Shown piece after piece: positions 1-28,394 of a stretch of DNA of 64,000 nt. Below the pieces are notes generated by a model that saw nothing but the letters and a program-made list of their open reading frames with translations, searched no databases and was not told the origin of the DNA. Both the position numbers and the translations under genes were made by a program. The stretch's first letter is position 1, and each line of letters opens with the position of its first letter. Where the stretch lies: the NCBI GenBank assembly GCA_963768775.1, contig CAVYIY010000005.1, positions 159,028-223,027 on the forward strand. Reading direction: 5' to 3'. The DNA comes from Methanomassiliicoccaceae archaeon (GTDB lineage: Archaea > Thermoplasmatota > Thermoplasmata > Methanomassiliicoccales > UBA472).

Positions 1-1830
1 CGCCCCGAAGGACATCCCGACCACCGTGGCGGAAGCATCCGGGGCGGCGTGCGAAGGCTGGCGGCGTTGGTCTTCGAGAACCGGTCAGGAATCGACACGG
101 TCGTCAAAGGAGTCGTTCCGGAGACCGATGTCAACGGACAGGAGCCCAGGATCGGCGTCTTCGTCTGCGACTGCGGCATCAACATCCGCGGAACCGTCGA
201 TGTGCCAGTCGGTCGTCGAGTACGCCAAGACCCTGCCCGAACGTCGTCTATGCGGAGGAGAACAAGTACACCTGCTCCGCCGATTCTCAGGAGAAGATCA
301 AGGATGCTGATCAAGGAGCACAAGCTGAACCGGGTGGTGGTCGCGTCCTGCACGCCCCGTACCCACGAGCCATTGTTCCAGAGCACCATCAGGGAGGCCG
401 GGACTGAACCCGTTCCTGTTCGAGATGGCCAACATCCGTGACCAGTGCTCTTGGATCCACATGCATGAGCCGGAGAAGGCGACCAAGAAGTCGAAGGACC
501 TGGTGAGGATGGCCGTCGCCAAGTCCAGGTTCCTGGAGCCGTTGTCCAAGTCGAAGCTCGGCGTCACCCACTCCGCCGTCGTCGTCGGCGGCGGACTGGC
601 CGGAATGACCGCGGCGCTGGACATCGCTGACCAGGGATTCAAGGTCGACATCATCGAGAGGACCGGAGAACTGGGCGGCAAGCGATGAACAAGCTGCATC
701 ACGCACGAGGGCGGACCGCAAGCCCGAAGGAGTTCATGAACGAGCTCATCGAGCAAGGTCCAGGACTAACAAGAACATCACCGTGCACCTGAACACCGAG
801 GTCAAGGACGTGACCGGATTCGTCGGCAACTTCAAGGTGAAGATCGACCGACGGCGAGATCGAGACCGGCGCCATCGTCGTGGCCATCGGCGCCAAGGAG
901 TACAAGCCCAAGGAGTACCTGTACGGCCAGGACAAGAAGGTCGTCACCCAGACTCGAGCTGGAGGAGAAACTGGCACGAAGGGCACGCTGCACGCCAAGA
1001 AGGTCGCCATGATCCAGTGCGTCGGCTCCAGGAACAAGGAGGCCCCCTACTGCAGCCGGGTCTGCTGCTCCAAGGCGGTCAAGAACGCCATCGAGATCAA
1101 GAAGAAGGACCCCACGACCGAGGTCTACATCCTGCACAAGGACATCAGGACCTACGGGTTCCGGGAGGCCCTGTACAAGGAGGCCGGCGAGCTCGGCGTC
1201 AAGTTCGTCAGGTTCCCGGAGGACAAGGACCCAGTGGTGAGCAAGGACGGCGAGATCTGAAGTCGTCGCCGACGACACGATCCTCGGCGCGCCGCTCGAG
1301 CTCACGCCGGACATGCTCGTCCTGAGCGCCGGCATCAGGCCCAACGACGGACAACGAGGAGCTGGCCAAGATGCTGAAGGTGCCGCTGAGCAAGGACAGG
1401 TACTTCCTCGAGGCGCACATGAAGCTGAGGCCGGTCGACTTCGCCACCAACGGCATATACCTGGCCGGACTGGCCCACTGGCCGAAGTTCATCGATGAGA
1501 CCATCGCACAGGCATCCGGAGCGGCCGCCAGGGCAATGACCATCATCTCGAAGCAGTTCCTGGAGACCCAGGGCATCATCGCGGCGGTGAACGAGATGGT
1601 CTGCAACGGCTGCGGCATATGCGAGCCGGTCTGCGAGTACAAGGCGATCACCATCGTGGCGGACCCGAAGCAACCCGGAGAAGCTGAAGGCCGTCGTCAA
1701 CGAAGGACTGTGCATGGGTTGCGGCACCTGCGTGGCCGCCTGCCCGTCCGGTGCCATGGAGCAGAAGGGCTTCAAGAACAACCAGATCATCGCACAGATC
1801 GACGCCGCTCTCGTCGGAGGTGGAAAGTAA
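1..1830 (+). pseudogene. hdrA: Heterodisulfide reductase subunit A (HdrA). The 5' end is cut by the window edge and the gene is broken by many frameshifts.
   Basis: HdrA-type peptides are spread over all three + frames: RIGVFVCDCGINI, VVEYAKTLP, NVVYAEENKYTCS, LNRVVVASCTPRTHEPLF, MANIRDQCSWIHMH, VVVGGGLAGMTAALDIADQG (GxGxxG), [32 protein letters not shown] and [16 protein letters not shown]. The stop TAA is at 1828-1830. Confidence 0.9.
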
Positions 1831-2300
1831 TGTCCAAGACCAAGTTCACGCCAAACGCAGGCCAAGCCGGCCGAGACGGGCGAGTTGGAACCGAAGCTCG
1901 TGGTCTTCTGCTGCAACTGGTGCTCCTACGCCGGGGCCGACCTGGCCGGAGTGTCGCAGACTGCAGATGCCGACCAACTTCCGGGTCATCAGGACCATGT
2001 GCTCGGCCAGGGTCGACCCGGAGTTCGTCCTCCGGGCCTTCGCCAAGGGCGCCGACGGCGTCCTGGTGCTGGGCTGCCACCCGGCCGACTGTCACTACAT
2101 CGGTGGCAACTACCGGACCAGGCAGGAGGATCGCCCTGCTCAGGGTGCTGCTGGAGCAGTACGGATTCAACCCGGACCGGCTGAAGCTGGAGTGGGTTTC
2201 CGCATCCGAGGGGGCGAAGTTCCAGAAGACGATCAAGGAGTTCAACGAGACTGATCAGGGAGCTAGGCCCGAACCCGATCAACGACGGAGTAAGTCTAAT
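1830..2300 (+). pseudogene. mvhD: F420-non-reducing hydrogenase iron-sulfur subunit D (MvhD), frameshifted. The 3' end is approximate.
   Basis: The ATG at 1830 overlaps the hdrA stop (TAATG). Peptides [57 protein letters not shown] and [41 protein letters not shown] lie in different frames. Confidence 0.85.
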
Positions 2301-2320
2301 CCAGGCAAGGATGGAACGAA

Positions 2321-3364
2321 ATGGCAAAGATCAAGATTGCGCAATATTGGGGAGCCGGATGCGGAGGCTGCGATGTCGCACTCCTGGACATCGACGAGAA
2401 GATCCTCGGAGTGGCAGAGATCGCGGACATCGCGTTCTGGCCGATCGCCGTGGACACGAAGATAAAGGACGTCGAGGCGATGCCCGACGGGTACATCACC
2501 GCCACCTTGTACAACGGGGCGATCAGGAACAGCGAGAACGAGCACATGGCCAAGCTGCTCAGGCAGAAGTCGGTGCTCATCGTCTCCTTCGGTTCCTGCG
2601 CCTGCTTCGGAGGAATACCGGGACTGGCCAACGTGACCAACGCGAAGGACATCCTGGACTACGTCTACACGAAGACGTTCTCCTCGGACCAGAAGAATGC
2701 CGCGTGAACGTGTCATCCCGCAGACGCATCACCCACACCAAGGAGGGAGACCTCGAGCTGCCGGTCCTGTACGACACCGTCCTGACGCTGGACCAGGTAA
2801 TCGACGTCGACTACTACATGCCTGGATGCCCGCCGACCACCAACCTGATCAACGAGTTCCTGGGCATCGTCGAGAAGCACGTCAAGGAAGGCGCGCCGCT
2901 CCCGCCGAAGGGATCGGTCATCGCTTCCCAGAAGACCCTGTGCGACGAGTGCAGCAGGAAGAAGGACGGTCAAGAGCGTCGACAAGATCTACCTGCCGTT
3001 CGAGATCGACATCGATCCCGAGAAGTGCATGCTGGAGCAGGGAGTCATCTGCCTCGGACCGTCCACCAGGGCGGGCTGCGGCGCCAAGTGCCTCGAAGGC
3101 CAACCAGCCGTGCCGTGGATGCATGGGACCGACCGCCGAGGTCATGGACCAGGGCGGCTAGCATGCTGAGCGCTCTGGCATCGATCTTCAAGATCGGGGA
3201 CAAGGAGGCGCAGCTGAACGAGGACGACATCCTCGAGATGATGTCGCAGGTCAAGGACCCGCTGGGAACGTTCTATGCCTTCACCATGCCCAAGTCGATC
3301 ATCAAGAGGATCGTCAAGGAGAAAGGGAAGAAGAAGCAGGCAGAGGCAAAGACAGGAGGCCTAA
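2321..3364 (+). pseudogene. mvhG: [NiFe] hydrogenase small subunit (MvhG), frameshifted.
   Basis: Peptides MAKIKIAQYWGAGCGGCDVALLDIDE, SFGSCACFGGIPG, DVDYYMPGCPPTTNLI, ICLGPSTRAGCGAKC and NQPCRGCMGPTAEVMDQG occur in successive frames. A TAA at 3362-3364 sits just before the mvhA ATG. Confidence 0.85.
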
Positions 3365-3367
3365 TAC

Positions 3368-4891
3368 ATGTCACCGATACTATCAGACCCGCAACCAAGA
3401 GCGACCTCGAAGCGCATCACCATAGACCCGATCACCAGGCTGGAGGGCCACGGCAAGATCGAGATCTTCCTGAACGACGAGGGCAACGTGGCGAACGCCT
3501 ACTGGCAGGTGCCGGAGCTGAGAGGTTTCGAGAAGTTCTGCATCGGCCGGTCCGTCGACGAGCTGAACAAGATCACCTCCAGGCTCTGCGGCGTGTGCCC
3601 CGGTGCGCACCACCTGTGCTCCACCAAGGCACTTGGACGGCGTCTACGGGCCACGCCCCCAGAGACCGCGGTGAAGCTCAGGGAGCTGTTCTACAGCGGC
3701 GCACTACGTGCACAGCCACATCGCGCACTTCTATGCACTGGCGGCCGCGGACTTCGTCCTCGGGCCAGGCGCCCCGGCGGCGAAGAGGAACATCCTCGGC
3801 GTGGTCGGACGCGGTCGGCGTGGAGGTCGGCGCCAGAGGTCATCAAGCACCGCTCCTACGCCCAGAAGATCCAGGAGATGCTCGGCGGAAAGGCCACGCA
3901 CCCGGTGTGCGGCATCCCGGGCGGTATGTCCAAGCCGCATCAACGAGGACGAGACGCAAGAAGATCGAGGCCATGGCCAAAGTCATGCGTGGAGTTCTCG
4001 CAAGTTCACCATGCAGCTCTTCGAGGACGTCGTGCTGAAGAACCAGGACTACATGAACATCATCGTCAGCAAGGACATCTTCTACAACGAGACCTACAAC
4101 CTCGGGACCGTCGACAAGAACGACAAGGTCAACTTCTACGACGGAACGCAGAAGATGATCGACCCGAACGGCAAGGAGGTCGCCCGGTATACTGGAAAGG
4201 ACTACCTGAAGTACATCGCCGAGCACACCCTGCCCTGGTCGCTACGAGAAGTTCTGCTACTTCAAGCCGGTCGGCTGGAAGGGACTCGTCGATGGGAAGG
4301 ACTCGCGGCATCTACCGTGCCACCCCGCTCTCGCAGGCTCAACGTCTCGAAGGGCTTCACCACCCCGCTGGCGCAGGCTGAGTACGAGAAGATGAACGGC
4401 ACCTTCGCGCGACCTCGGCGTCAAGGGGCCGGTACACCACACCATGGCGATGCACTGGGCCCGTGTGATCGAGCTGGTGTACGCTTCCGAGCAGCTGCTC
4501 GAGCTGGCCCAGGACCCGGAGATCACCGGCAAGGACATCAAGGGCGAAGCTGCACACCCCGGACGAAGGAGTCGGCATACTGGAGGCTCCGCGTGGAACC
4601 CTGGTGCACCACTACGCGTCGGACAAGAACGGCATCACCACCGACGTGAACCTGGTCGTGGGAACGACCAACAACAACGCCCCGATCAACCTGAGCGTCA
4701 GGAAGGCCGCCACCGCGCTGATCAAGAACTGGCAGGTGTCCCACGGTCTGCTGAACACCGTCGAGATGGCCTACCGCGCCTACGACCCGTGCAACAGCTG
4801 CGCCACGCACACGCTGCCTGGTCAGTCGCCTCTGGTGGTCAACATCCGCAAGGCGGACGGCAGCATGTTCCAGCAGATCAAGAACTACTAG
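3368..4891 (+). pseudogene. mvhA: [NiFe] hydrogenase large subunit (MvhA), with many frameshifts.
   Basis: An AGGAGG lies 8 nt upstream of the ATG at 3368. The peptide ITIDPITRLEGHGKIEI is present. The N-terminal Ni-binding motif RLCGVCPGAHH and the C-terminal motif DPCNSCATH are both present. Internal peptides alternate among three frames. Confidence 0.9.
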
Positions 4892-4931: not shown

Positions 4932-5705
4932 CTAATGCTGATAGCGCTTCGGCCTCTCCACCCTCAGGCTCCTTACCGTCCCCAGGTTGATGCCGTCCAG
5001 GAGGTACACCTGCGCCCCCTCGACGTCGATCATCCCCTGGGTGAACAGTGGGCCGAGCAGCTTGCCGCCCTCCAGGTTGACCGGGCTCCCTTTGATGGTC
5101 GGGTTGAGCGAGGGCATGACGATTATCTCCTCCGGGAGATCGGTGTAGCGCTCCCTCGCATTCTCGTTGAACTTCGCCCGGAGCCAGCAGCGCTCGGTCA
5201 TGATGTTGCCGACGCCATCCTTAAACAGCACCGCTGGGTGGTTGTGGGCCATCACCAAGGTCTTGCTGGCCATGACCTCGAAGGAGGGCCAGACGTGGCC
5301 ATGGACGAAGCCTACCTCCTCGGTGGCGAAGCCGGAAGGCGAATGGATGTGGACGCCCTCGAAGGCGATGTCCTCGATCCCGACGTCGTGGTTGCCCTTG
5401 ACGACGTCGATCTCGGAGAAGACGTTCTTCAAGGCGTGGAAGAACCGCGGCAGCTCGGAATGCTCCTGTTCGCTGGTGCCGGGAACCTGATGCTTAACGT
5501 CCCCTAGGAGGATCAGCCGTTCGCTGCCCTCTGCCAGGGCGATCAGCTCCCTTTCCATCCTTATCGTCTGGCTGGGAACGATGATGCCCTTCGACTGCAT
5601 CTCGTCCTCCAGTCCGATGTGGAGGTCACCGGCACAGAGGATCGACCCTCCGTCCAGTATGCGCAGTGCGGGATGGTCGACCACGGGCGAGGCTCTCAAG
5701 GACAT
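4932..5705 (-). CDS. Metallophosphoesterase (calcineurin-like, archaeal ICC-type)
   Basis: Intact 257-aa ORF with motifs GDLHIG, LLGDVKH, GNHD and GHVW. Confidence 0.75.
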   Translation of the reverse strand: MSLRASPVVDHPALRILDGGSILCAGDLHIGLEDEMQSKGIIVPSQTIRMERELIALAEGSERLILLGDVKHQVPGTSEQEHSELPRFFHALKNVFSEIDVVKGNHDVGIEDIAFEGVHIHSPSGFATEEVGFVHGHVWPSFEVMASKTLVMAHNHPAVLFKDGVGNIMTERCWLRAKFNENARERYTDLPEEIIVMPSLNPTIKGSPVNLEGGKLLGPLFTQGMIDVEGAQVYLLDGINLGTVRSLRVERPKRYQH

Positions 5706-5757
5706 GTTACCGGATAGCCAAACCCGACCCTAGGGAAAAAGGATTACGGTTGAAAGT

Positions 5758-6435
5758 TCAGATGCCGCTGTAGAGCCGCATGGAAAGGAAAGAAGGTAGG
5801 CCACTCTCCCGCATCGCCTCCGCCACCGCATCGATATCGTATGCCAGCCTCTTCACCTCGAAGCGGCGCAGCCTGTGGTCGTAGATGACCAGGCTCGCCC
5901 TGGGATCGCCGTCCCTGGGCTGTCCGACCGAGCCCGGGTTGACGATCGTTCCCTGATCCAGGCTCTTGACAAAGGGGACGTGCGTATGCCCCAGCACGAG
6001 AAAATCACATTTGGCCAATTCCAGCAATCCCTCGTCCGCGTCCTCCTCCGGCACGTACTCGTCGGGGTTCCGCGGCGACCCGTGGAAGATGGCGATCTTC
6101 AAGCCGTTCCAGAAGAAGGATTGATGGGCATTGAGCCGGGAGAGGTAGTCCTGGCCCTCCTGCTTGAGATTCTCAATGGTCCACCAGATGGCATCCTGGG
6201 CCTGGATGTTCATATTACTGGAGTCGTGGCTGAGCACCGCCCGATCATGATTCCCCTTTATGCTGGTGATCTCTATCTTCCCCAGCCGCTCGATGACCTC
6301 GTTCGGATGAGGGCCATAACCGACGATGTCCCCGGCGCACAGTATCCGGTCGACTCCTTCCTTCTCGATCTGCTCCAGCACGACTTCGAGGGCCGGCAGG
6401 TTCGAATGGATGTCCGATATGATAGCCAAACGCAC
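5758..6435 (-). CDS. Metallophosphoesterase, YfcE/MJ0936-like phosphodiesterase
   Basis: Intact 225-aa ORF with motifs ISDIHSN, AGDIVGYGP, GNHD, GHTH and GSVGQPRDGD. Confidence 0.8.
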   Translation of the reverse strand: MRLAIISDIHSNLPALEVVLEQIEKEGVDRILCAGDIVGYGPHPNEVIERLGKIEITSIKGNHDRAVLSHDSSNMNIQAQDAIWWTIENLKQEGQDYLSRLNAHQSFFWNGLKIAIFHGSPRNPDEYVPEEDADEGLLELAKCDFLVLGHTHVPFVKSLDQGTIVNPGSVGQPRDGDPRASLVIYDHRLRRFEVKRLAYDIDAVAEAMRESGLPSFLSMRLYSGI

Positions 6436-6455
6436 GCCCTTTCAATCATTTCGGA

Positions 6456-7886
6456 CTACAAATACCTATCAAGCTGTTGCTTGAGCACGAGCGGAACGCA
6501 GTCGATTACGTCCGTGGCGAGCAGGCTGAAGCCGAGGGTCTGGTATGCCAGGTCGCCCGCAGCGCCGTTGACGAACGCGGCGATCCTAGCGGCGTCGAAC
6601 GGCGCCACCCCGCGGGAAAGCAGACCGGCCACCTCGCCGGCCAGCACGTCCCCGGTGCCTCCGACGCTCATGCCAGCGTTGCCGGTCCGATTCAGCTTGC
6701 AGCGCCGGCCGTCGGCGACCACGTCAATCCGGCCCTTGAGCAATATGGTGAAGCCGATCGCTTCGGCTAGCTCCATGGCCGGCCTCCTCCGCTCCTCATA
6801 ATCCGCCGGCAGTTTTCCTCCGCTCAGGGTCATGAACTCGCCAGCATGAGGCGTGATGACCCCAATCTTGCCGGCGAGCACGCTCCTGTCCTTGGCGACG
6901 GCGGTGATCGCGTCGGCATCGATGACCAGGGGTTTGTCGCACCCCTTCACGATTGCCCTTATGGCCTGCAAGGTCTCCTCCTCGTTTCCCAGGCCCGGGC
7001 CGATGAGGAGCGCCTCCACGTTCTTGATCAGCTCCAGCACTTGCGAGACGTCCTTCTCGGTCAGGACGTCGCCGCTCAGTTCATGGACGATGAAGTTGGG
7101 CGAATAGCCAGCTATCGGAAGGTAGGAGCGAGCGGGAGTGGCGATACGCACTAGGTCGACCTTGATGCGATACGCGCCGAAGCCAGCCAGGGCGGGCGCG
7201 CCTGTATAAGGTCCCCCGCCGACGACTAGGACGCGTCCGTTCATCCCCTTGTGGGAATCGGGAGAGGGTATGGGATAGTGCACGAACTCCCCCGGCCCGA
7301 TGTACTTTGCCGCGTCAAGCGGGATCCCGATGTCCGCGATCACGATCTCGCCGGAATTGTCCTTGCTCATGCCCTCTTTCACGTCGTGGAAGGTCACGGT
7401 GACCGTCGGCCGCACCATCTTGTCCGTTCCCAGGCCCGAAGGCACATCCACCGCCACTATCGGCCTGGAGGAATGGTTGATTCGGTCGATCAAGTTCGAA
7501 TAGGGCTCGGCCAGATGGCCCTTGGTCCCGGTGCCCAGGAGCGCGTCTATGATCACGTCAAAATCGGATAGATCCTTGCCGGCATCGATCACTAGATCCT
7601 TGATCACCAGGAACGCATCCTTTGCGATGGCGGTCTTGATCTCGGCGGCCGGCCTGGCCAGAAGCACGCTCACCTTGTTGTCCCTCTTGAGATAACGGGC
7701 CACCACGAATCCATCTCCGCCGTTGTTGCCAGTGCCGCACAGCACCGCTATGCGCTTGTGCTCCCCGAAGCGGTCGGAGACGGTCTTTGCCACGGCTCTC
7801 CCCGCATTCTCCATCAACAGTGCTGTGGGCACGCCAAGAGATTCTGCGTTGATGTCCAGGATGCGGAATTCAGAATAGGGGAGCAT
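6456..7886 (-). CDS. nnr: Bifunctional NAD(P)H-hydrate repair enzyme (NAD(P)HX epimerase / ADP-dependent dehydratase)
   Basis: Intact 476-aa ORF. The N-terminal YjeF_N signature is VLCGTGNNGGDGFVVARYL. The C-terminal carbohydrate-kinase part contains GGTGDVLAG. Confidence 0.85.
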   Translation of the reverse strand: MLPYSEFRILDINAESLGVPTALLMENAGRAVAKTVSDRFGEHKRIAVLCGTGNNGGDGFVVARYLKRDNKVSVLLARPAAEIKTAIAKDAFLVIKDLVIDAGKDLSDFDVIIDALLGTGTKGHLAEPYSNLIDRINHSSRPIVAVDVPSGLGTDKMVRPTVTVTFHDVKEGMSKDNSGEIVIADIGIPLDAAKYIGPGEFVHYPIPSPDSHKGMNGRVLVVGGGPYTGAPALAGFGAYRIKVDLVRIATPARSYLPIAGYSPNFIVHELSGDVLTEKDVSQVLELIKNVEALLIGPGLGNEEETLQAIRAIVKGCDKPLVIDADAITAVAKDRSVLAGKIGVITPHAGEFMTLSGGKLPADYEERRRPAMELAEAIGFTILLKGRIDVVADGRRCKLNRTGNAGMSVGGTGDVLAGEVAGLLSRGVAPFDAARIAAFVNGAAGDLAYQTLGFSLLATDVIDCVPLVLKQQLDRYL

Positions 7887-7982
7887 AGGTCAAAATCAGC
7901 CCTGCTAGTGAATAATGGTTTGCTTTCCTGCGAGCGCAAACGTTATTATTCGCATTGCATTCTAAATACCGGAAAGAGAACG

Positions 7983-8273
7983 ATGACAGAAATACGCAGA
8001 TTGGTGCTGGATGTGCTCAAGCCGCATCACCCCACCATCGTGGAGCTCGCACGGAAGCTGAGCGTCCTTGAAGGGGTGTCCGGCGTGAATTGCACGCTTG
8101 AGGAAGTGGACCAGGAGACCGAGAGCATTAAGATCACGATCGAAGGGAGCGCGCTGGACTTCGAGGCCATCGAGTCCGCGATTTCGGAGACTGGCGCGGT
8201 CATCCATTCGGTCGACAGCGTTTCCGCGGGCAAGAAGATGGTCGACGAAGTGGAGACGCCTCAGGACCGCTGA
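7983..8273 (+). CDS. DUF211-family small conserved archaeal protein
   Basis: The ATG is at 7983. The sequence MTEIRRLVLDVLKPHHPTIVELARKLSVLEGVSGVNCTLEEVDQETESIKITIEG matches the DUF211 pattern from memory. Confidence 0.6.
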   Translation: MTEIRRLVLDVLKPHHPTIVELARKLSVLEGVSGVNCTLEEVDQETESIKITIEGSALDFEAIESAISETGAVIHSVDSVSAGKKMVDEVETPQDR

Positions 8274-8557
8274 GAGCGCACCATTATCTCCCCGACCTTG
8301 ACTAGAAGTTGACCTTTGGGGATTGTGATGGGCACCAGAGCGCGCCCTTTCTTCAGGTGCCATTCGCCTGGGTAGGACTTCTCCTCTTCCAGAGTGAATT
8401 CGATGCCGAGCTTCGTCAGAGCCTTGGACAGCATTTCCAGGCTGGGGTCGGGCACGGCGAGCTTCTTGCTGACCTTGCGGCCTTGGGCTCGGGTGAGATT
8501 GGTATCAAAATACTCAGGCCAGAGCACCCAAGACTTCTCAGTGTCCATTTCGATCAC
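8261..8557 (-). CDS. srp19: Signal recognition particle protein SRP19
   Basis: 98-aa ORF. WVLWPEYFDTNLTRAQGRKVSKKLAV is the typical SRP19 N-terminus. Confidence 0.8.
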   Translation of the reverse strand: MIEMDTEKSWVLWPEYFDTNLTRAQGRKVSKKLAVPDPSLEMLSKALTKLGIEFTLEEEKSYPGEWHLKKGRALVPITIPKGQLLVKVGEIMVRSQRS

Positions 8558-8590
8558 CGAGTTACGGGTTTAGCGGGTGGGCGAAGTCGC

Positions 8591-8972
8591 TCACTTCACC
8601 AATACCGCGTTGATCGCTCCATCTTGGCCCGGTCTGGAGGTCACCTTTGCCATGCCGAGATCGGTCTGGATAATGGCGCCCTTGTTGATGATGTTGCGCT
8701 GCACGTAGTTTGAGTTGGCCGAGTTCTCCTTGACGGTGACGATCTTGACCTTCTGGGTCTTCTTGGTCGTCGGGTCCATCACGTTGGCGTAGATGGCCTT
8801 CAAGCATCCTGACCTTGGAGTTGCCACCGCGAACGCGGTACTTCTGCAGTCGGGTCTCGCCCAGATATGTGTATTGAGCGTCCCGGCCGATCTCGAAGCG
8901 ACGCTTCTTTCTTGATAGGCGCAGCCTTCCGCCCGAAGGCTTGCGTCGTGATTTGCCCTGCCACAATGACAT
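8591..8972 (-). pseudogene. rps8e: 30S ribosomal protein S8e with one frameshift near 8799-8806
   Basis: The N-terminal part [57 protein letters not shown] lies in the frame of ORF 8562..8972. The C-terminal part [69 protein letters not shown] lies in the frame of ORF 8591..8827. Confidence 0.85.
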
Positions 8973-9081
8973 AGTTATCCTCTTGGCAAAAATGGAGCAT
9001 GGTATAAATATGTTTCCGACAGCGGGTTATGTTCTGTCTTGGGGGAAAGGCTTATGAGTGTGCTTTTCATTTGCCTCACAT

Positions 9082-9618
9082 ATGGATTGGACGATTCTCT
9101 TAGAGATTCTATTGCCTTTAGGGATAGTAGGGGTGGCGTTCGTGGTTAGAAGTCACCCAAGAATTGATGTAAAGCTAGAATCCGAAAAGCTCGAAGGATT
9201 CGAGCATCTGCACTCCCTGAATCGGAAGATATTGCATCTCAAACGGCTGAAGGGCTCTGAAGTAGCCAACCCTCGAATCTACATCTATGTAAAAACGAAA
9301 GAGGACATTTCAAGCTACCATATTAGTGAATTTATCCATGATGACATAGAGGGAAATATCGGGACGGGATTGGATATTGCTATACCATTTCCAGTAGATT
9401 TAATCACAAATGCAGAACAAATCGCAATAGCCTATCATTATTCCAATGCCTATTTTCCGTGGAGGTCAAGAACCGTTGCGATTTACCGATTGGGAGAGAG
9501 GAATGGATTGTTGAAAGAGCGAACAAGTTACCACCAGTTTCTTGGTTTCCGTTCACAAGGCATTATAGAGAAAGAGATGAAACGGAGAAGAATCCAATGG
9601 CTGAACACATCGAAATAA
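9082..9618 (+). CDS. Hypothetical membrane-anchored protein in a low-GC patch
   Basis: This is ORF 9058..9618 with an ATG at 9082 (MDWTILLEILLPLGIVGVAFVV is a TM helix). The last 22 nt overlap the transposase start. I recognise no homology. Confidence 0.35.
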   Translation: MDWTILLEILLPLGIVGVAFVVRSHPRIDVKLESEKLEGFEHLHSLNRKILHLKRLKGSEVANPRIYIYVKTKEDISSYHISEFIHDDIEGNIGTGLDIAIPFPVDLITNAEQIAIAYHYSNAYFPWRSRTVAIYRLGERNGLLKERTSYHQFLGFRSQGIIEKEMKRRRIQWLNTSK

Positions 9619-10529
9619 CAACCACGGAGCGCACAATCGCCTGCCGTCATTGCGGTTCAACGGATGTCAGCAAGGATGGCAAATACAAGGATGCACAGTA
9701 CTACATTTGCAAAGATTGCGAGAGCAAATTCTCAGGTAAGGATTGCTATCCCAAGATGAAATACCCCAAAGAGGCCAATGTCAGAGCATTGACTTACTAC
9801 TACAATGGAATGTCGTACAAGGCTATCAATCACACGCTCAGCGACATAAGCAAGATATCGCCGAGCAAATCAACAATATGGAATTGGGTGATTAAGTACT
9901 CCAAACTGACCAACCGATATGTTCTCACACTGAAACCCCATCTATCGGACAAATGGATTGCTGATGAGACGGTAATAGACATCTGGGGTGAGCATTACTG
10001 GTTCTGGGACATAATAGACACTGAAACCAGATTCCTCATCGCATCTCACCTTTCAAGAACACGGACTGAGAGAGATGCGACTAAACTATTCCAAATGGCA
10101 AAGTTGCGGAGCAAATACAGACCTGCCATAATTATCACGGATAAATTGGGGCAGTACAACAAGGCATTCAGAAAAGTGTTTTATTCGAGTACACCAAGCC
10201 ATAAGGCATTCCATCTGACCTCAGAGGGATTCCAATCGCCTACGAATACCAATCTCATAGAGAGGTTCCACGGTACACTCAAACAACGGACGAAAGTTAT
10301 GAGAGACTTGAAAGAAAAAAATAGTGCCAGGATTGTTCTCGATGGCTATGTCACGCATTACAACTTCTTCATGGAGCATCAATATCTGGAAGGATTAACC
10401 CCTGCCGTGGCGGGTGGCATAGGCGGGGATTTGCATAATTGGGGAGACATGATAGACCAGGCTCTCAATGCACCCATTGAGAACCCCCAAATAACTCTCG
10501 AATGGGAGGAAGAATATCGTGTGGAATGA
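9597..10529 (+). CDS. IS6-family DDE transposase with an N-terminal zinc ribbon
   Basis: The ATG is at 9597. The zinc ribbon is CRHCGS...CKDCES. The IS6-type core is WIADETVIDIWGEHYWFWDIIDTETRFL...IITDKLGQYNKAF...NTNLIERFHGTLKQRTKVM. Confidence 0.8.
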   Translation: MAEHIEITTTERTIACRHCGSTDVSKDGKYKDAQYYICKDCESKFSGKDCYPKMKYPKEANVRALTYYYNGMSYKAINHTLSDISKISPSKSTIWNWVIKYSKLTNRYVLTLKPHLSDKWIADETVIDIWGEHYWFWDIIDTETRFLIASHLSRTRTERDATKLFQMAKLRSKYRPAIIITDKLGQYNKAFRKVFYSSTPSHKAFHLTSEGFQSPTNTNLIERFHGTLKQRTKVMRDLKEKNSARIVLDGYVTHYNFFMEHQYLEGLTPAVAGGIGGDLHNWGDMIDQALNAPIENPQITLEWEEEYRVE

Positions 10530-10727
10530 GGGGGTCTGACGGGGTGCCAGAATCGACTATTTCCACCAAGACCGAACGCAACCCCGACAGCGAAGGCGAG
10601 AGTGCAATGTATGCTGGCGAAATAGCTATGCCCTCGAGCTCCACCCTCCAAACCCTTACCCTCTTATTTTCTTTGTGGAGTCGGGTGAGGACCGGGCCAT
10701 GGCCGACTAGGTCGAAAAAAGTGATTC

Positions 10728-11340
10728 ATGCAAACAGAGGTATCGAATAGCGTGAGGTCGGATATCCTGAACGTTGGGTATCGGTCGGTAAACTGCTATC
10801 TTCTAATGACAGATAAGCCAAGAATGCTGATCGATGTGGGCTGGCCGGGCGGGATGCCAGAGCTCAAGAGGAGCATGGCCTTGCATGGCAGGCCGGTCAA
10901 GGAGGTTTCCCATGTCCTTATGACCCATTACCACATCGACCATGCTGGCATCGCCCAGGAGCTGAAGGACAAGGGTGCGAAGCTCATCGTCATGGAGAAC
11001 CAGAAGAGTCACCTAGACGACCTCAAGAAGTACCTGCATCCGCCCGAGGTCTTCCATGAGATAAGGAAGGATGGCAACATCCACCTTAGATTCGAAGAAA
11101 GCCGAGCCTTCCTGGAGGGGATGGGAATCCTCGGCGAGATAATTCCAACCCTGGGTCATAGTCCTGACCATGTCACTCTGGTGCTCGATGAGGGCATCGC
11201 CTTCACCGGAGATCTTCCGCCTGAGAACGCCGCGGAGGAAGGCAACGGATGCCTACAGGGACTGGAATAGGCTGCGGCCGATGAAGGTCAAACGGATCTT
11301 CCCGGTGCACGGGAATTACGATTCTATCTTGGGAAACTGA
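10728..11340 (+). pseudogene. MBL-fold metallo-hydrolase with one frameshift near 11243-11250
   Basis: The motif THYHIDHAG (HxHxDH) and LGHSPDH are present. The C-terminal DAYRDWNRLRPMKVKRIFPVHGNYDSILGN continues in another frame to the stop at 11338-11340. Confidence 0.7.
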
Positions 11341-11378: not shown

Positions 11379-12026
11379 TCAGAGGTCAGGCACCGGATCC
11401 AGCAAGATGCCGCGCACTCGATCGTCCACTTCCAAAAGCGCGGAGAGGCCGTTCTTGGCCGCCCCCGGATTCATGAACAGGATGCCATTCTTCTCAATGA
11501 TGCCCCGGTTCTCGTGGATATGTCCGGAGATGACTGCAGATGGCCTGAACTCATTGACTAGCCTCAGGATCGCCGTGCTTCCAGCATGCCTTCGAGTGGC
11601 TGTAAAATCGTTATAGGAATAGGGCGGGCAATGGGTGATTAGTACCATATCCGGCTCCATTATCGGGCGAAGTCCATTGAGTATCTCGTCCTCTGGCATC
11701 TCGAATGGAGTATTGAAGATGGATATGTTCGCTCCGCCCCAGCCTCCGAAGGTCCGTCCACCGATCTTAGTCTTCTTACCGTGAAGGCAGGTGGCATGCT
11801 TCTCGATCTCTTCGATCGTCCCATAAGGGTCGCAGTTGCCCGGAACCGCGTAGGACGGTCGCTCCAATTTGCTGAGGAATTCATCGGCCCATGAGGTCGG
11901 ACCGAAGTGGGTGATGTCTCCTAGCACAAGGAAACCGTCCACCTCGTGCTCCCTGGCCAGATCGTTCGCCCAGTCGATCACCCTCTCCCGGCAATGGATA
12001 TCGGAGAGAACCAGGAACTTCGTCAT
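11379..12026 (-). CDS. Metallophosphoesterase (calcineurin-like)
   Basis: Intact 215-aa ORF with motifs LSDIHCR, LGDITHFG, PGNCDP and SGHIHE. Confidence 0.75.
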   Translation of the reverse strand: MTKFLVLSDIHCRERVIDWANDLAREHEVDGFLVLGDITHFGPTSWADEFLSKLERPSYAVPGNCDPYGTIEEIEKHATCLHGKKTKIGGRTFGGWGGANISIFNTPFEMPEDEILNGLRPIMEPDMVLITHCPPYSYNDFTATRRHAGSTAILRLVNEFRPSAVISGHIHENRGIIEKNGILFMNPGAAKNGLSALLEVDDRVRGILLDPVPDL

Positions 12027-12072
12027 CTACTGGACATGAAGGCACACTCTTTCATTAGAGCCTGCCGGTCCT

Positions 12073-12991
12073 CTAGAACGTGATCCCGAAGCTGAGGTTC
12101 TGGAAGACGAGCAGGTAGGTCAGAAGGTAGCCGATTATCGCCCCGCCGTTCAGCAACGGCAGCCCGGCCTGCGGGTTGCCTTTCAAGACGTAGCGCATCA
12201 AGCGCGAAGAAGCCGATTGTCGATCCGGCCACGGTCCCAATGGCCACCAGGAGGTTCGCCCCCTGGACGAATGCCGAGGCGCCGGGAAGGAAGACCGCCG
12301 CCGACACCGCCAGTATCGAAGGGATGACCGCATCCCCCACGCCCATGAACATGGCCTCCCTTTCCTCCGGAGGCTCCGAGGCTATGTGCTTGTTCTCCAG
12401 CTGCGACATGGAGAAGTCCTTCTTCTTGGGAATGACGAAGACAACCGGCAATTTGAGGGGGACTACCCCTTCCGCCAAAGCGATCATGTGCTTCGTCTTG
12501 TAGACCGATATGGCGTCATAGATCGCCAGGATGACCAGCAGGATGAGGACCGGCAGGATGCTCAGCGAGAGGCCGAGCAGGATCGCCGCCCCGATACCGA
12601 TGATGAAGCCGATAGTATTCACCACGTACCATTCCGGCTTGAAGAGGAGCAGCCCGATCAGGACCAGGGCTATGGCGATGGAGCCATAGACCGCGAAGTC
12701 CAGGTTGGGGATTATCTGGTAGAGGATCGGAAGCATGACGACGAACGTCGTCGTTCCCACGGCAACCACGAATATCCCCTTGATTATCTTGCCCAGCCCG
12801 TTTTTGATCAATACCAGCATCAGTCCAGTCATCGCGAGGAGCATCACGACGTAGATGATCGGGTTCGTTGGGTCGTTCGCGTTCGGGAATGCCTGATAAT
12901 CGGATGGGTATAATGGCACCAAAGCCAGGGCGACCAACTGCATCCCCACGAATATGATGAACATCAGCACTATCGGAAGCTTCTCTTTCAT
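12073..12991 (-). pseudogene. Presenilin / signal-peptide-peptidase homologue (GxGD intramembrane aspartyl protease) with one frameshift near 12194-12206
   Basis: The protein is multi-TM. It has the YD motif (LAIYDAISVY) and the GxGD motif (FMGVGDAVIP). The C-terminal PAL-like segment MRYVLKGNPQAGLPLLNGGAIIGYLLTYLLVF lies in the frame of ORF 12073..12333. Confidence 0.7.
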
Positions 12992-14929: not shown

Positions 14930-15885
14930 ATCGAAACACCCCCATTTCCCCGAAACTTCTAATAAGCAATTGTGAGTGTGAGTCGGAAGACCGAATATAA
15001 TGGCTCGTTTCCTTTTTGTCAATTAATTAGCCAAGAAAGGAAATCTTCATCGCTCAATTGATGTCTGGATTAAGTGATTTAACTATTTGTGCTGCAGCTG
15101 GGACACCTCGCTCAAACGCTAACAAGCAATTGATAGTCAACAGGAGAGGTATCGGTAATTCTCGAAAAAATATTTCGACTTATCGATCGCTTTCATATAC
15201 TGGCATGAAGCGGTACAATTCTTCCCAATTCCACCTCATTGGTCGATAGGAATTGAACATTCATGTCGTATATTCCACATATTTAGAAGGATTAGCCGTT
15301 ATTTCGCCATGAATAACCTGGTCATTTATGAAGTGTTGGAATGTTGGGGATTGTAAGTGCGCAATATTTGCAAGCACCCATTAGTTCTTATATTTGAGAC
15401 GAACAGAATAATGATGGCGAGCCGGGAATCCTCCTTTGCTTATCGTGGTGTGAGAGTTGGAATCAGACAGCCATTATTATGCCCCGGTCCGCCATCCTTC
15501 ATTATTGAACGCACTATGGCCGTTTAAACTGGAACCGGTTAGAAGATGGAAGAAGGTAAGGATAGAAGAAAGAAGATAGGAAGAGGTTTGGAGACATGGC
15601 GAGCATAGCGTTAAACGATTCAGCCAGCAGGTGTTATCGTCGCATTTTTCGGTTGTCAAATCTGTTTGCACCAGGAAATCAAGGTGCGCAAACATATCAC
15701 ACGCCCATCCTAGCCAGTCTACCTTATCCAGCTCCATAACGCACATCCTACTATCCCCGGTCCGTCATCCCTTCCAATCCGTTTCTCGATAATCTCCATA
15801 AGTTACCGCCATTAAGTCGATACCAGAGATTAAGAGTAAAGTTGTCAATGGTGTGAAGCTTGGTTCATTTTATTGAGGGAATGAT

Positions 15886-16977
15886 ATGATCTCTGAACAA
15901 AAGGGTCCGATGAGCGATGATATTGCCGCTAAAAAGAAGTATAACGATGTAATAAGAATCCCATTCGAACTCAATGAAAGTAGCATCCTGGCGATATGCG
16001 GGATGCTCTGCCTTCTGATCTTCTTCTTGGACGTCAGCTTAAGGATCTCGTTCCTCGTCAGCATTCTGTATGTTATTCCAGTGCTGATTTGTATCTGGTC
16101 CCCGAAAAGACGGACCATATATATTGTAGCAGGAGTATCCTCGTTCCTTACAATAATTGCAATACCCTTCAAACCACCTGGAGACATTCTAATCCCTCTT
16201 TTCAATCGGCCACTCTCATTGCTCACCCTTTGGACCGCGGTGATTCTAATTGACCGATTCAACTCCATCCGAAAGAGGTTCGAAGAGAAGTTAAAGAAGT
16301 CCAATGATGACCTCCAGCAATTCGCTTACATCGCCTCGCACGACCTTCAGGAGCCTCTGCGCACGGTCGTCAATTACCTGGCCCTCCTCCAAAGAAAGAA
16401 TATGGATAAGCTGGATCCTAAATCCCAGGAATACATCAATTTCGCCATGGATGGCGGAGAAAGGATGCGCCAATTGATCGATGACCTATTGGAGTATTCA
16501 AGAGTCGATAGCCAGGGGAAAGAGTTCACTCCAGTGAATATGCAAGACGTAATTGATGAAACTCTTGCAATACTTAAATCGCGCATAGAAGAAAGCAATG
16601 TGCAAGTGATCACCGGTCCACTCCCTGTAATCTCTGGAGATGAAACTCAAATGATAAGGGTGATGCAGAATCTGATAGGGAACGCAATCAAATTCCACGG
16701 CCCAGAGCCTCCGAAGATATGCGTTTCAGCGTCGGAAGGCAGGAATGAATGGACCTTCGCGGTCAAGGACAACGGAATCGGTCTGGACATGCAGTATTCA
16801 GACAAGATATTCCAGATGTTCCAACGTTTGCATAATAAGGAAGAATATCCAGGGACAGGTATCGGCCTTGCTGTCACGAAGAAGATCGTTGAACGTCATC
16901 GAGGAAGGATCTGGGTCGAATCGGAAGAAGGCAAGGGAGCGACATTCTTCTTCACTATTCCGATCGGCAATAATTGA
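15886..16977 (+). CDS. Membrane sensor histidine kinase
   Basis: The N-terminal part is hydrophobic. The HisKA H-box is FAYIASHDLQEPLRTV. The HATPase_c region contains NLIGNAIKF and GTGIGLAVTKKIVERHRGRIWVESEEGKGATFFFTIP. Confidence 0.85.
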   Translation: MISEQKGPMSDDIAAKKKYNDVIRIPFELNESSILAICGMLCLLIFFLDVSLRISFLVSILYVIPVLICIWSPKRRTIYIVAGVSSFLTIIAIPFKPPGDILIPLFNRPLSLLTLWTAVILIDRFNSIRKRFEEKLKKSNDDLQQFAYIASHDLQEPLRTVVNYLALLQRKNMDKLDPKSQEYINFAMDGGERMRQLIDDLLEYSRVDSQGKEFTPVNMQDVIDETLAILKSRIEESNVQVITGPLPVISGDETQMIRVMQNLIGNAIKFHGPEPPKICVSASEGRNEWTFAVKDNGIGLDMQYSDKIFQMFQRLHNKEEYPGTGIGLAVTKKIVERHRGRIWVESEEGKGATFFFTIPIGNN

Positions 16978-17415
16978 TAAAGGGAAAGGTGCCAGTTCGG
17001 CTCATCTCTTAGAGACCAAACCTGCCGTCTCGCAACGATATAACGATGATTTCCTCTGATTTCTAAATGTAAATATGAAAAAACAGATTCCGGACACTTC
17101 GGACGAATCGGACCGATTCCCTAGACAGAGATCTAGAATCAAAAAGAATTGAAAGAATTACAACCCTCGTTAATTAGATTGGGCAGGGTAATGATTCTTA
17201 TGAAATGAATGAAACGTGCTCTCGGGCTCAAGAAGAAGAGCTAAAGGGAAACACTATCTGATATTGACCTTCGGGTCTTGTTGCATTTAAAGAAAGTTGA
17301 GTAAGGGGTTTGGGGGGACAATTGGGCATTTCCTGCAATTCATCCAGTATTCTTTCATATCTCAAATTTGAGTGGTGAAGGTAGTTTCATATTTCAGCTC
17401 GGGTTTGCCGTCTTA

Positions 17416-17907
17416 ATGAGGAAAGCGAGCTTCAGCGAGTTCTTCCCTGACCGCTATGGATCAAAGCTCGAGGCGGCGAAGGACATTCCTTGCATCTTCG
17501 AGGTGGTCATGAAAGCTGTCCAGGAGACGATGGGCCTCAGACGCTCGGGTCTGGAGCTTGGCCTTATCGAACTGGAGAGCAGTCATGGATATTTCATCGG
17601 TTGCCTCCACCCCTTTGGCACGAACCTGATAGTAGTGAACAAGTTGCCTCTTAGGCGAGTGAAGGATTCATCGCCCCAGATCTGCAAATCATATTTATTC
17701 CTTGTTCTTCTGCACGAGTACATGCATACGTTTGGCATCTGGGATGAGAAGGAAATACGCGAGGGGGCCCTGGCGATGATTAGACAGCTTTTCGGGGATG
17801 ATCATCCGGCCACGAAACTGGCAGAGGGCATCGAGCAGTTGCTCCCGTTCGTCATCTATCCGACGCAGATGTCGTTGCCCAAGGGAACGAAGATGGAGTC
17901 GGTCTAG
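17416..17907 (+). CDS. Hypothetical protein with an HExxH motif, possibly a zinc metallopeptidase
   Basis: The ATG is at 17416. The LLHEYMHTFG (HExxH) motif is the only functional clue. Confidence 0.4.
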   Translation: MRKASFSEFFPDRYGSKLEAAKDIPCIFEVVMKAVQETMGLRRSGLELGLIELESSHGYFIGCLHPFGTNLIVVNKLPLRRVKDSSPQICKSYLFLVLLHEYMHTFGIWDEKEIREGALAMIRQLFGDDHPATKLAEGIEQLLPFVIYPTQMSLPKGTKMESV

Positions 17908-17953
17908 GGATTCTGCTCGAGATCTCGTGATGCCAGCTTGAGCGATTGTTGGA

Positions 17954-19165
17954 TCAGGTCGCTGGCATGACCAAGTCCTTCGACAATGGCGTATACCGAT
18001 TCGCGATAAGGTAGAGGGGGACCGAGGCTGCAGCCAGGATTGCTCCAATATACATCGCTGCCTGAAGCGATGAGCTATCGATCACCGGCCCAAGGACCAG
18101 TGTCATTCCGCCCGCGGCGAGGTTGAGCAGCGAGCTCAGCAGAGCCAAAGAGGACGCCCTGATTCGGGAAGGTATCAAGGAGTTCCTCCAGAGCATCACC
18201 GTCGGCATTGCCAGTCCGCTGGTGAAGCCGCTGATGGCGAACAGTATTCCGGACAGCAGGTAGCTTTGGACTAGGGGCTGCAGGATGTAGGAGGCGAAGA
18301 GCAGGATCCCGGCAAAAGCCAGCATCCGGTGCCTTCCCAGCCGGTCGGCCATCTTGATCGAGAGCAGGTTCCCTGCCACCATGGAGACCATCAGCACGGA
18401 GAAATAGATGCCCAGGAACTCCTTGCCCATGCCAGCTAGCACCAGATACGGCTGGTAGACGATGAAGTAGACGATGACGGCGCTGTTGCGGAGCATCTCA
18501 GCGTAGGTAAGGTCCCTCAGGGCGGCGCTGTGGCGGAAGTGCGACAGGCTCTCCTTCAGCAGTCCGGCGAAGCGGGAGCTTCTCTCGCCGAAGTTCTCCT
18601 TGAAGAAGAAGAGGGCGAAGAGCGTGGCAACGGCGGTGAGCGCCGCCCCCACCAGCATGGGGAGGTTCAGGGCGATGGCCGCGAAGACGGAACCGACCAC
18701 GCCTCCGACAATCCCGAGCAAGTTGCTGACGCTGCTGTTAACCGGGAACGTCCGCTTCGCCTCGCTCGCCTTGCCCTCCGCTCGCAGCGAATCGATGAGC
18801 CAGGCCTCGACCGAGCCGCTGATCAGGGCGGCAGAGCCGGCCAGGATTATCTCGGCCAGGAGGAAGCGAAGGATGGAGGATGACAATCCATACACCGTGA
18901 AGCCGAAAACATTAATGGCTCCGCCGATCAGCAAAGCCTGCTTCCGGCCATGCCTGTCCGCGAAGTCGCCGGCGAAGAGGTTGAGGATCGCTAGCGCCAC
19001 GAAGTTGCCCACGAAGATCAGGCTGATGTCGGTGTAGTCCAGCCCGTTTGCCGTCAGATAGATGATGTAGTAGCTCTGGAAGACGAAGAAGCCCGAGTTG
19101 AGGATCGCCATGTAGGCGATGTACTCCTTGGAGGTCCTCGAAAGGGGCATTACACGTCCTGGCAA
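17954..19165 (-). CDS. MFS transporter
   Basis: 403-aa ORF with about 12 hydrophobic segments. FAGDFADRHGRKQ is an MFS loop 2-3 motif. Confidence 0.75.
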   Translation of the reverse strand: MPGRVMPLSRTSKEYIAYMAILNSGFFVFQSYYIIYLTANGLDYTDISLIFVGNFVALAILNLFAGDFADRHGRKQALLIGGAINVFGFTVYGLSSSILRFLLAEIILAGSAALISGSVEAWLIDSLRAEGKASEAKRTFPVNSSVSNLLGIVGGVVGSVFAAIALNLPMLVGAALTAVATLFALFFFKENFGERSSRFAGLLKESLSHFRHSAALRDLTYAEMLRNSAVIVYFIVYQPYLVLAGMGKEFLGIYFSVLMVSMVAGNLLSIKMADRLGRHRMLAFAGILLFASYILQPLVQSYLLSGILFAISGFTSGLAMPTVMLWRNSLIPSRIRASSLALLSSLLNLAAGGMTLVLGPVIDSSSLQAAMYIGAILAAASVPLYLIANRYTPLSKDLVMPAT

Positions 19166-23143: not shown

Positions 23144-23208
23144 CGAAGATCGGTATCGCAGCCCTCTCATCGGTAGGCAGTTCGGGGGTTCAAATCCCCC
23201 TCCCGGTA
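23134..23208 (+). tRNA. tRNA-like sequence (central CAT, so Met/Ile2-type?) with a defective anticodon stem; a possible tRNA pseudogene
   Basis: The acceptor ACCGGGA/TCCCGGT, D arm GCGA-AGATCGGTA-TCGC and T arm GGGGG-TTCAAAT-CCCCC all pair perfectly. The anticodon arm GCCCTCTCATCGGTAGGC forms only 3 clean base pairs. Confidence 0.45.
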
Positions 23209-23576
23209 CCTCTTTCCTTCTTTATCCCAGTGTCTCGAACGTCCTTGGAGCTGCCACTTCGAAGTTGCAGCCACGAAGTCGAAAGCTCCCGGACTGTATA
23301 CACTCAGGAACTAATGTGTCTTAAAGGGTTTGCGCTCATTCCTTCTATTGATTCTTAGTCGAAGCTGATATGAATGAATGTTGATGGTGCAATCGATCAT
23401 TATGATGAATTCTACCTTCAAATAAAGGATTATTATGATCTATTGAAACAAAACTGTATTACAATGGCATTACACGAATCAAATCTAAATCACAGTTGTC
23501 GATTAGAAACACGATGAATCGTTCGAACGTCCTTTTAGAGTGTTAACGATAAATAGAAAATCGAGAAGTATGAAAG

Positions 23577-23591
23577 TTGTACCTAAAGTCG
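23577..23591 (+). repeat. Extra iteron copy TTGTACCTAAAGTCG upstream of the small zinc-ribbon gene
   Basis: Matches the TTGCACCTAAAGTC consensus at 13 of 14 positions and lies 62 nt upstream of the ATG at 23653. Confidence 0.4.
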
Positions 23592-23652
23592 GCTGTGGGT
23601 AGTTTCACTGTAATTGGCGATTTGAATAGCATCCTATGACCTTCAGCAGATT

Positions 23653-26765: not shown

Positions 26766-26847
26766 GTAGACCAAATATATATGTGCATATCCAATTATAT
26801 AACTATCTAGTTATGATGATAATGTGATATATGAATATCATCTTACT

Positions 26848-28373: not shown

Positions 28374-28394
28374 ATAGGACGAAATAACACAACA

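Follow-up and report, generated by a model that had tools for sequence, protein, structure and literature searches.

The hydrogenase and heterodisulfide reductase subunits MvhADG/HdrABC form the predicted energy-conservation core of the Methanomassiliicoccales, and in the reference genomes of this order hdrA is present as a single copy; a long type of HdrA has been described for them (Borrel et al., 2014, PMC4153887). In long-read assemblies, the residual consensus indels of nanopore data have been ascribed to homopolymer regions (PMC9262707). The window analysed here, by which we mean the whole 64-kb stretch of DNA, opens with an hdrA-mvhDGA operon whose four genes are all interrupted by frameshifts, and it was compared with five intact relatives, all of them contigs from uncultured Methanomassiliicoccaceae (L002 and L084-L087).

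The operon is encoded on the forward strand. It starts with the 3' part of hdrA (about 610 codons, positions 1-1830, stop codon TAA at 1828-1830), the 5' part of which lies beyond the window start, followed by mvhD of the FlpD family (1830 to about 2299), whose ATG overlaps the hdrA stop, mvhG for the small subunit (2321-3364) and mvhA for the NiFe large subunit (3368-4891). As the initial annotation had proposed, the four genes are recognisable at the peptide level by three-frame translation, and after frame correction each translation matches its Pfam families: Pyr_redox_2 and Fer4 for HdrA, FlpD for MvhD (186.7 bits), Oxidored_q6 for MvhG (72 bits) and NiFeSe_Hases for MvhA (126 bits), the last as a full-length family member. 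Its claim that the cofactor motifs are intact also holds, since the translation of mvhA retains RLCGVCPGAHH (N-terminal RxCGxCxxxH) and DPCNSCATH (C-terminal DPCxxCxxH), and that of hdrA retains GGGLAG and the Fe-S cysteine motifs. Judged by its sequence, MvhA is the large subunit of an F420-non-reducing [NiFe] hydrogenase of group 3c; its best database relative (P0001) is about 88-89% identical over 503 aa, and its other hits carry PF00374 and PF27537. HdrA is of the long Methanomassiliicoccales type (about 1000 aa, two FAD sites): the second FAD-binding half is present, the proteins of the relatives measure 1002-1017 aa, and a frameshift-aware alignment gives 84% identity with the 1007-aa HdrA of L002. 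The gene order hdrA-mvhD-mvhG-mvhA is identical in all five relatives, which also have in common with the window the flanking genes for two metallophosphoesterases, YjeF, DUF211, SRP19 and S8e.

A reference-free plot of codon usage by frame revealed about 16 rotations of the coding frame within positions 1-4890, against a single frame in each of the downstream genes. Frameshift-tolerant protein-to-DNA alignment resolved 39 frame breaks, of which 36 shift the frame by +1 nt and three by +2 nt, and DNA alignment with two intact relatives placed about 49 non-triplet indels in 1-4891, namely 39 one-base insertions, five two-base insertions and five deletions (44:5). The hdrA part carries about 17-20 frame breaks; mvhD carries four, with further indels near its 3' end; mvhG is intact over codons 1-128 and then breaks six times; and mvhA, which has no single uninterrupted ORF, contains 12 uncompensated +1 breaks and two compensated pairs (3393/3403 and 3632/3649), with the last indel at 4547. 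Only three of 36 insertions fall in homopolymer runs, defined as at least three identical bases with the extra base counted. The disruption is thus heavier than the 25-30 frame changes first estimated; likewise, the four shifts first counted in the first 450 nt number six (at about 50, 63, 208, 236, 306 and 400), all indeed +1, and the impression of a single extra G is true only in part, given that MAFFT places G 15 times, C ten, A nine and T five times among 39 inserted bases. That there are no stops other than those created by shifts was borne out, with none in 1603 corrected codons.

The two metallophosphoesterases and the YjeF-type NAD(P)HX repair protein (4932-7886, reverse strand) are intact and syntenic, as had been noted for the neighbouring genes. 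Their lineage-specific variation is normal, and they were used as internal controls. Instead of the five or so frame changes suggested for the other 59 kb, we found one clear case, a similar +1 insertion near 45745 in the gene for archaeosine tRNA-guanine transglycosylase (arcTGT, 44569-46519, reverse strand), so that indel density in the operon is about 500 times that of the remaining window. Conserved genes elsewhere in the window, among them rpS12, rpS7, EF-2, EF-1alpha, CTP synthase and IlvD, are intact, and the 16S rRNA gene shows no spurious insertions across the first ~730 model positions shown. The genome also contains mobile elements (IS elements and an integrase), and at 23134-23210 a tRNA, real according to Rfam (46 bits), to which ARAGORN assigns the four-base anticodon CAUC. 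A tblastn search of the 64-kb window with four reference proteins matched only positions 1-4888 and gave no second hdrA-mvh copy. An intact copy from the same species was not found among 5.8 billion proteins, where the best MvhA reaches 88%; an exact-protein look-up gave no match, the best YjeF among GTDB representatives being 83% identical, and the closest match to a neighbouring gene in a metagenome scan was 90% identical.

The allelic composition of the operon is consensus-like. Its private nucleotides amount to 68, where each of the five intact relatives has 284-427, and at third codon positions to 48 against 186-256; for the neighbours MetA, MetB and YjeF the private-nucleotide counts of the window are normal. 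At otherwise invariant columns, private amino acids number 0, 0, 1 and 3 in HdrA, MvhD, MvhG and MvhA, respectively, compared with 10-29, 0-4, 5-17 and 9-18 in the relatives, a total of four against 37 in the sister L002. The operon is 79-86% identical to each of the five relatives, which are only 73-77% identical among themselves, and at variable sites it has the plurality base in 82% of cases, against 62-73% for real sequences. No two relatives resemble one another as much as the operon resembles every one of them. Alleles exclusive to a single relative are found in common with L002 (68), L084 (52) and L086 (36), one per clade, so that at least three lineages contribute alleles. Up to about position 4650 the nearest relative by sliding identity is L002 (79-93%); from about 4800 on it is L084 (82-89%), L002 falling there to 60-65%, and the L084 lineage stays nearest across the downstream genes. 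Sliding identity, bins of exclusive alleles and the last indel together place the end of the indel-laden, centroid-like sequence, and with it the switch from the L002 to the L084 lineage, in a transition zone at 4550-4800.

The insertions sit where the relatives differ. For 37 of the 39 frame breaks (95%), the codons of the relatives at the junction differ by at least 2 nt, against a background of 59% (Fisher p = 4e-7). A placement bias of the frameshift alignment was rejected as the cause of this enrichment, as random insertions simulated through the same pipeline returned the background value (60% at multi-nucleotide-variable codons). We considered that the inserts might be third-position SNP doublets in which both alleles are kept, since by eye nearly all of them looked like XYZ+N with synonymous alternatives. 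When all candidate deletions were scored against the five relatives, 16 events were third-position-only and four internal-only, where 2:1 is expected, which is not significant; 16 further events stayed ambiguous, and the doublets were mostly transversions. For this reason a broader merged-codon test was adopted, and it was significant: at 21 of 36 +1 sites (58%) the 4-mer is a supersequence of the codons of two different relatives, against 28% in the simulated null (p = 1.4e-4). Examples are ACTC (ACC + CTC), AAGC (AAG + AGC), GGCC (GGC + GCC) and GAAG (GAG + AAG). The indels thus occur where templates differ and retain both alleles, although merging of codons from the five relatives covers only 58% of the sites.

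We consider it probable (about 0.8) that the segment from position 1 to about 4800 belongs as such to no single organism but arose during assembly, as a consensus of several homologous hdrA-mvhDGA templates that had been collapsed. An assembler would have collapsed these templates and computed a consensus over their reads or sequences. Where the templates agreed or differed only by simple changes, the majority base would have been kept, so that the sequence became centroid-like, retained its motifs and acquired no private alleles; where their codons differed, the bases of both alleles would have been kept, giving a four-base codon and hence a +1 frameshift. The collapsed stretch would then have been joined, within the conserved 3' end of mvhA, to the genuine L084-like genome. 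The technical route may have been a long-read or other overlap/consensus assembly in which a repeat node collapsed, perhaps at the end of a contig. Conservation alone cannot explain why only hdrA-mvhDGA is blended, since EF-2, EF-1alpha, rpS12, rpS7 and 16S rRNA are clean, and a special position of the operon, for example at the end of a contig or in a repeat node, must therefore be assumed. The initial annotation had favoured a local assembly problem and named two collapsed paralogues as one option; the collapse agrees with the centroid sequence, the merged codons and the position of the indels, but at least three lineages take part rather than two, and co-occurring Methanomassiliicoccaceae populations in the metagenome are more likely templates than paralogues. 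There is a precedent in two public long-read assemblies of the closest species (L001 and L002), between which we counted ten single-base, non-homopolymer insertions in 14 kb, splitting hdrA or other genes. Speaking against such a collapse, templates 15-25% apart exceed the divergence that most assemblers merge.

The low-coverage contig end, also named in the initial annotation, would require random errors from a few insertion-biased reads (for example PacBio CLR-like) of one organism, left unpolished. Single-base, insertion-dominated, non-homopolymer errors, a location at the window start, a sharp border to clean sequence and the similar +1 insertion in arcTGT would all suit this origin. Such noise should nevertheless ignore codon variability between relatives, whereas 37 of 39 breaks fall at multi-nucleotide-variable codons (60% in the null) and 58% of sites match merged codons of relatives (28%); it also leaves the lack of private alleles, the sharing of alleles with several clades and the switch of nearest relative unexplained. 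With insertions neither randomly placed nor in homopolymers, plain read noise fits poorly, and we regard it as unlikely. A freshly inactivated cluster, the other suggestion made at first, is very improbable. The frameshifts do stand in the deposited sequence of a genome that has mobile elements and a frameshifted arcTGT, but about 49 indels accompany no in-frame stop, and instead of an excess of lineage-specific, especially nonsynonymous, substitutions the operon is poorer in private substitutions than each of the intact relatives, synonymous sites included. Indels in prokaryotes are usually biased towards deletion and slippage. The 44:5 ratio in favour of insertions outside homopolymers is the opposite of this bias, in that a natural spectrum would have deletions at least as frequent as insertions, slippage in repeats and independence from other lineages; here the indels track codon differences of other lineages, and there is no reason why a mutational process should follow these. 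Energy conservation in the order is moreover predicted to depend essentially on this operon (PMC4153887). Natural decay is thus disfavoured by the missing stops, the near absence of private substitutions, the insertion-dominated spectrum and the tie between indels and inter-lineage codon differences.

Two readings take the sequence as correct. A mosaic operon, recombined from several lineages and afterwards struck by about 45 single-base insertions in one burst, with loss of H2-dependent heterodisulfide reduction or massive +1 recoding as its consequence, has in our view only a very slight chance of being right. That the operon is functional as written, through +1 ribosomal frameshifting or quadruplet decoding, is scarcely credible. 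All shifts are +1, and the tRNA with anticodon CAUC would match one site (GAT-G at 303-306); quadruplet decoding through this tRNA was rejected, however, as it would require more than 25 different four-base codons, and the sites have no common slippery or stop-codon context. Frameshifting at stops of the kind known as Euplotes-like was rejected as well, because only few sites create TGA or TAG (1258, 2705 and 3159) and most old frames are free of stops. The old frames continue for hundreds of bases past a shift, ORF 49-441 being one instance; the five relatives need no shift to encode these proteins; and recoding leaves the centroid-like sequence unexplained.

At face value, the window describes a methanogen lacking the core electron-bifurcating Mvh/Hdr complex, and automatic annotation would call four pseudogenes or many fragments, leading to a wrong metabolic reconstruction and wrong estimates of MAG quality. 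The disrupted operon is almost certainly an artefact, which says nothing about the metabolism of the organism and holds no new biology. Recognising a blended consensus averts such errors, and the region should be flagged and kept out of metabolic inference. Three diagnostics can be read without access to the reads: insertion-only frameshifts at codons variable between lineages, a missing load of private alleles and a switch of the nearest relative.

In gene order, long HdrA and the full set of cofactor motifs, the locus resembles the hdrA-mvhDGA operons of Methanomassiliicoccales (PMC4153887), from which it differs in that all its genes are broken by +1 insertions and in being a centroid of lineages rather than a normal ortholog. 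With the frameshift errors of long-read genomes and metagenomes (PMC9262707; proovframe preprint, 10.1101/2021.08.23.457338) it has in common that small consensus indels split otherwise intact genes; unlike those errors (PMC9262707), its indels are not concentrated in homopolymers (3/36), are nearly all insertions and are located where related lineages differ. Its putative templates, about 15-25% apart in DNA sequence, diverge more than is usual for a collapsed consensus. It otherwise behaves as collapsed repeats and strain-collapsed consensus sequences do, having no private alleles and mixing those of several templates, being limited to a shared conserved segment and stopping where the templates become less homologous.

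The first 4,891 nt of the window carry, on the forward strand, the 3' part (~610 codons) of a long hdrA that runs off the window start (1-1830), followed by mvhD (1830 to ~2299), mvhG (2321-3364) and mvhA (3368-4891). The ORF list of this operon contains nothing but short overlapping pieces in the three frames; its peptides are plainly readable in a three-frame translation, and the frame-corrected versions match Pyr_redox_2/Fer4, FlpD, Oxidored_q6 and NiFeSe_Hases. A stitched MvhA query retrieved thousands of homologues, led by the database relative P0001 (88% identity over 503 aa), and the named matches were Ni/Fe hydrogenase large subunits from Methanomassiliicoccales/Thermoplasmata. Contigs of five uncultured relatives (L002, L084, L085, L086 and L087) harbor an unbroken version of the cluster, encode an HdrA of 1002-1017 aa and share flanking synteny with the window.

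The changes of frame described in the initial annotation were confirmed by three approaches. In a homologue-free frame plot, with codon usage learned from long ORFs in other parts of the window, the coding frame rotates ~16 times across 1-4890 and each downstream gene keeps one frame. A frameshift-tolerant protein-to-DNA dynamic programme located 39 breaks, of which 36 are +1 nt and three are +2 nt, and a MAFFT DNA alignment with contigs L001 and L002 gave ~49 non-triplet indels found in the window operon alone, comprising 39 one-base insertions, five two-base insertions and five deletions. Two pairs of indels compensate each other (3393/3403 and 3632/3649) and the final one within mvhA lies at 4547. 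The earlier figure of 25-30 changes was an underestimate, although their +1 direction was correct, and the suspected extra G accounts for 15 of the 39 single-base insertions but not for the remainder. Just 3 of the 36 +1 sites fall in runs of at least three identical bases.

That the operon consists of real pseudogenes decaying in the archaeon, the alternative originally considered, is very improbable. Once the frame breaks are removed, no in-frame stop occurs in 1603 codons. At columns invariant in the five relatives, the window differs at none in HdrA and MvhD, one in MvhG and three in MvhA (two of them inside a compensated frameshift), versus 10-29, 0-4, 5-17 and 9-18, respectively, in each real relative. 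The shortage of substitutions includes synonymous sites, with 68 private nucleotides in the window operon versus 284-427 in the relatives, and 48 versus 186-256 at third codon positions; in three intact neighbour genes the private counts of the window are ordinary (e.g. 175 versus 159-233 for YjeF). Natural prokaryotic indel spectra favor deletions, and slippage in repeats, so that the excess of insertions over deletions observed here (44:5, outside homopolymers) runs contrary to them. Judging by these counts, ~49 indels together with fewer substitutions than in any functional ortholog are the opposite of neutral decay, and the placement of the indels, tied to the variation of other lineages, also speaks against it.

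Indeed, 37 of the 39 frame breaks are found at junctions with relatives' codons at least two bases apart, against a background of 59% (Fisher p = 4e-7), and for junctions with a gap, or with three differing bases among the relatives, the figures are 26 of 39 and 28%. When random insertions into the corrected sequence were processed identically, the two shares were 60% and 35%; being near background, they reject alignment placement bias as the cause of the enrichment. In codon-aligned views the four-base "codon" often merges the alleles of two relatives, as in ACTC (ACC in L002 and CTC in L084), AAGC (AAG and AGC), GGCC (GGC and GCC), GAAG (GAG and AAG), CTGC (CTG and CTC) and TCGC (TCG and TCC), and at 21 of the 36 +1 sites the four bases yield, by deletion of one or another of them, the codons of two different relatives (28% of simulated sites, p = 1.4e-4). 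Merging at variable codons also accounts for the sparing of the cofactor motifs and of long invariant stretches, such as the first 128 codons of mvhG. Our initial idea of third-position SNP doublets as the mechanism failed its own test. Plain low-coverage read noise is unlikely, since stochastic errors should ignore the variation of other lineages, and it fails as well on the centroid property described below. Recoding or quadruplet decoding is scarcely credible: more than 25 different four-base codons would be required, and GAUG is the one among them that the odd tRNA at 23134 could read.

The DNA identity among the five relatives is 73-77%, and that of the window to every one of them is 79-86%. 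Exclusive alleles are shared with L002 (68 sites), L084 (52) and L086 (36), each representing one of the three clades; for their sisters L085 and L087 the numbers are much lower (13 and 10). At variable sites the window agrees with the plurality base of the other sequences in 82% of cases, versus 62-73% for real sequences. Compared 150 nt at a time, the sequence is nearest to L002/L001 up to ~4650 (79-93%) and to L084 from ~4800 on (82-89%, with L002 falling to 60-65%); the downstream metallophosphoesterase protein shows 92% identity to L084 and 55% to the L001 lineage. Identities, exclusive alleles, plurality match and the switch of nearest relative mark the frameshift block as a centroid of several lineages, not the sequence of a single organism, joined to genuine L084-like genome within the conserved 3' end of mvhA. 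The last 28 MvhA residues (THTLPGQSPLVVNIRKADGSMFQQIKNY, 4800-4891) are identical to those of P0002, a protein of the L084 lineage, and the N-terminal part resembles P0001; this mosaic was the first hint of a hybrid nature.

The best reading of the sequence is that the operon block would be a consensus over several collapsed homologous templates; the assembly problem with collapsed copies preferred in the initial annotation is thus supported, and sharpened, by the placement, allele and spectrum tests. Majority voting would strip alleles private to any single template, and where templates carry different codons, a gap-favouring alignment could admit the bases of both alleles, leaving one base extra. 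The collapse would reach only as far as conservation permits cross-alignment and would stop where homology falls, just 3' of mvhA. A special position of the block, e.g. a contig end or repeat node, must be assumed, given that other highly conserved genes of the window are not blended, and a divergence of 15-25% between templates is unusually high for a collapse. The pattern, from which the technology is inferred, requires an overlap/consensus step, because insertions 13 nt apart are beyond what a de Bruijn path through real k-mers can produce. The templates would be co-occurring populations, or conceivably paralogues. Reference genomes have a single hdrA (PMC4153887), and no second hdrA-mvhDGA copy was found within the window. 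Directly upstream of its canonical cluster, L084 carries two additional genes at 1-1951, one hdrA-like (612 aa) and the other a long member of the FlpD family (256 aa), implying that Hdr/Mvh-like paralogues exist in the group; the window begins downstream of where such a pair would lie in its own genome.

About five frame changes had been claimed for the other 59 kb, of which one was confirmed. One +1 insertion near 45745 (context ATGTTC-C-GCCGAAGGC) splits the archaeosine tRNA-guanine transglycosylase (TGT) gene (44569-46519, reverse strand), leaving one ORF with TGT profile positions 2-271 and another with positions 291-356 and the C2 and PUA domains. No other clear frameshift was seen outside the operon, and this one is probably a consensus error as well. 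The genes for rpS12, rpS7, EF-2, EF-1alpha, CTP synthase and IlvD are clean, as is the 16S rRNA, free of spurious insertions over the first ~730 model positions. In Thermoplasmata, rRNA genes are usually unlinked, and the complete archaeal 16S gene (28898-30366, reverse strand, 1513.6 bits) has no adjoining 23S or 5S, its flanks (28400-28900 and 30400-31500) being without long ORFs. A forward-strand tRNA of 105 nt at 31087-31191 (42.8 bits by Rfam, no ARAGORN call) presumably carries an intron. Another at 23134-23210 (forward strand), which a local Rfam search scored at 46 bits and the whole-window gathering run missed, has perfect acceptor, D and T arms, an anticodon arm of 18 nt, not 17, and a four-base anticodon CAUC (ARAGORN); no single-base deletion restores a canonical anticodon arm. 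It may be a damaged tRNA, an att-site tRNA or another assembly error, and lies at the edge of a low-GC island with type I R-M genes. Such islands (40-49% versus about 60% GC; 9000-11000, 15000-18000, 22000-28400 and 60000-64000) break the synteny seen in relatives and carry mobile or defence genes: two transposases, one an IS6-type DDE enzyme (9459-10529) and the other of the DDE_Tnp_1 family (27123-28373), and a type I R-M methylase with a specificity subunit (23784-26613). Outside the islands, a phage-type integrase (57118-58194) adjoins a tRNA-Ala (57027-57102).

As far as sequence can tell, the operon region is an assembly artefact and no real biological feature, and its worth lies in a curation flag and in read-free diagnostics for a blended consensus. 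The same class of artefact is present at lower density in two public long-read ENA assemblies of the closest species (L001 and L002, 99.3% mutual identity), which are set apart over 14 kb by ten insertions of one base outside homopolymers, the splits in either being absent from the other: hdrA is in four pieces through single-base insertions in L001 (5449-8478), and a metallophosphoesterase (6128-6929), YjeF (7618-9050) and a signal-peptide peptidase (11832-12757) are each split in L002. Residual nanopore consensus indels have been attributed to homopolymers (PMC9262707), a pattern unlike that of the window operon. The cluster itself corresponds to the Methanomassiliicoccales arrangement, in which a long hdrA, encoding two FAD sites, adjoins mvhDGA, and MvhADG/HdrABC is the predicted bifurcating core of energy conservation (Borrel et al., 2014; PMC4153887).
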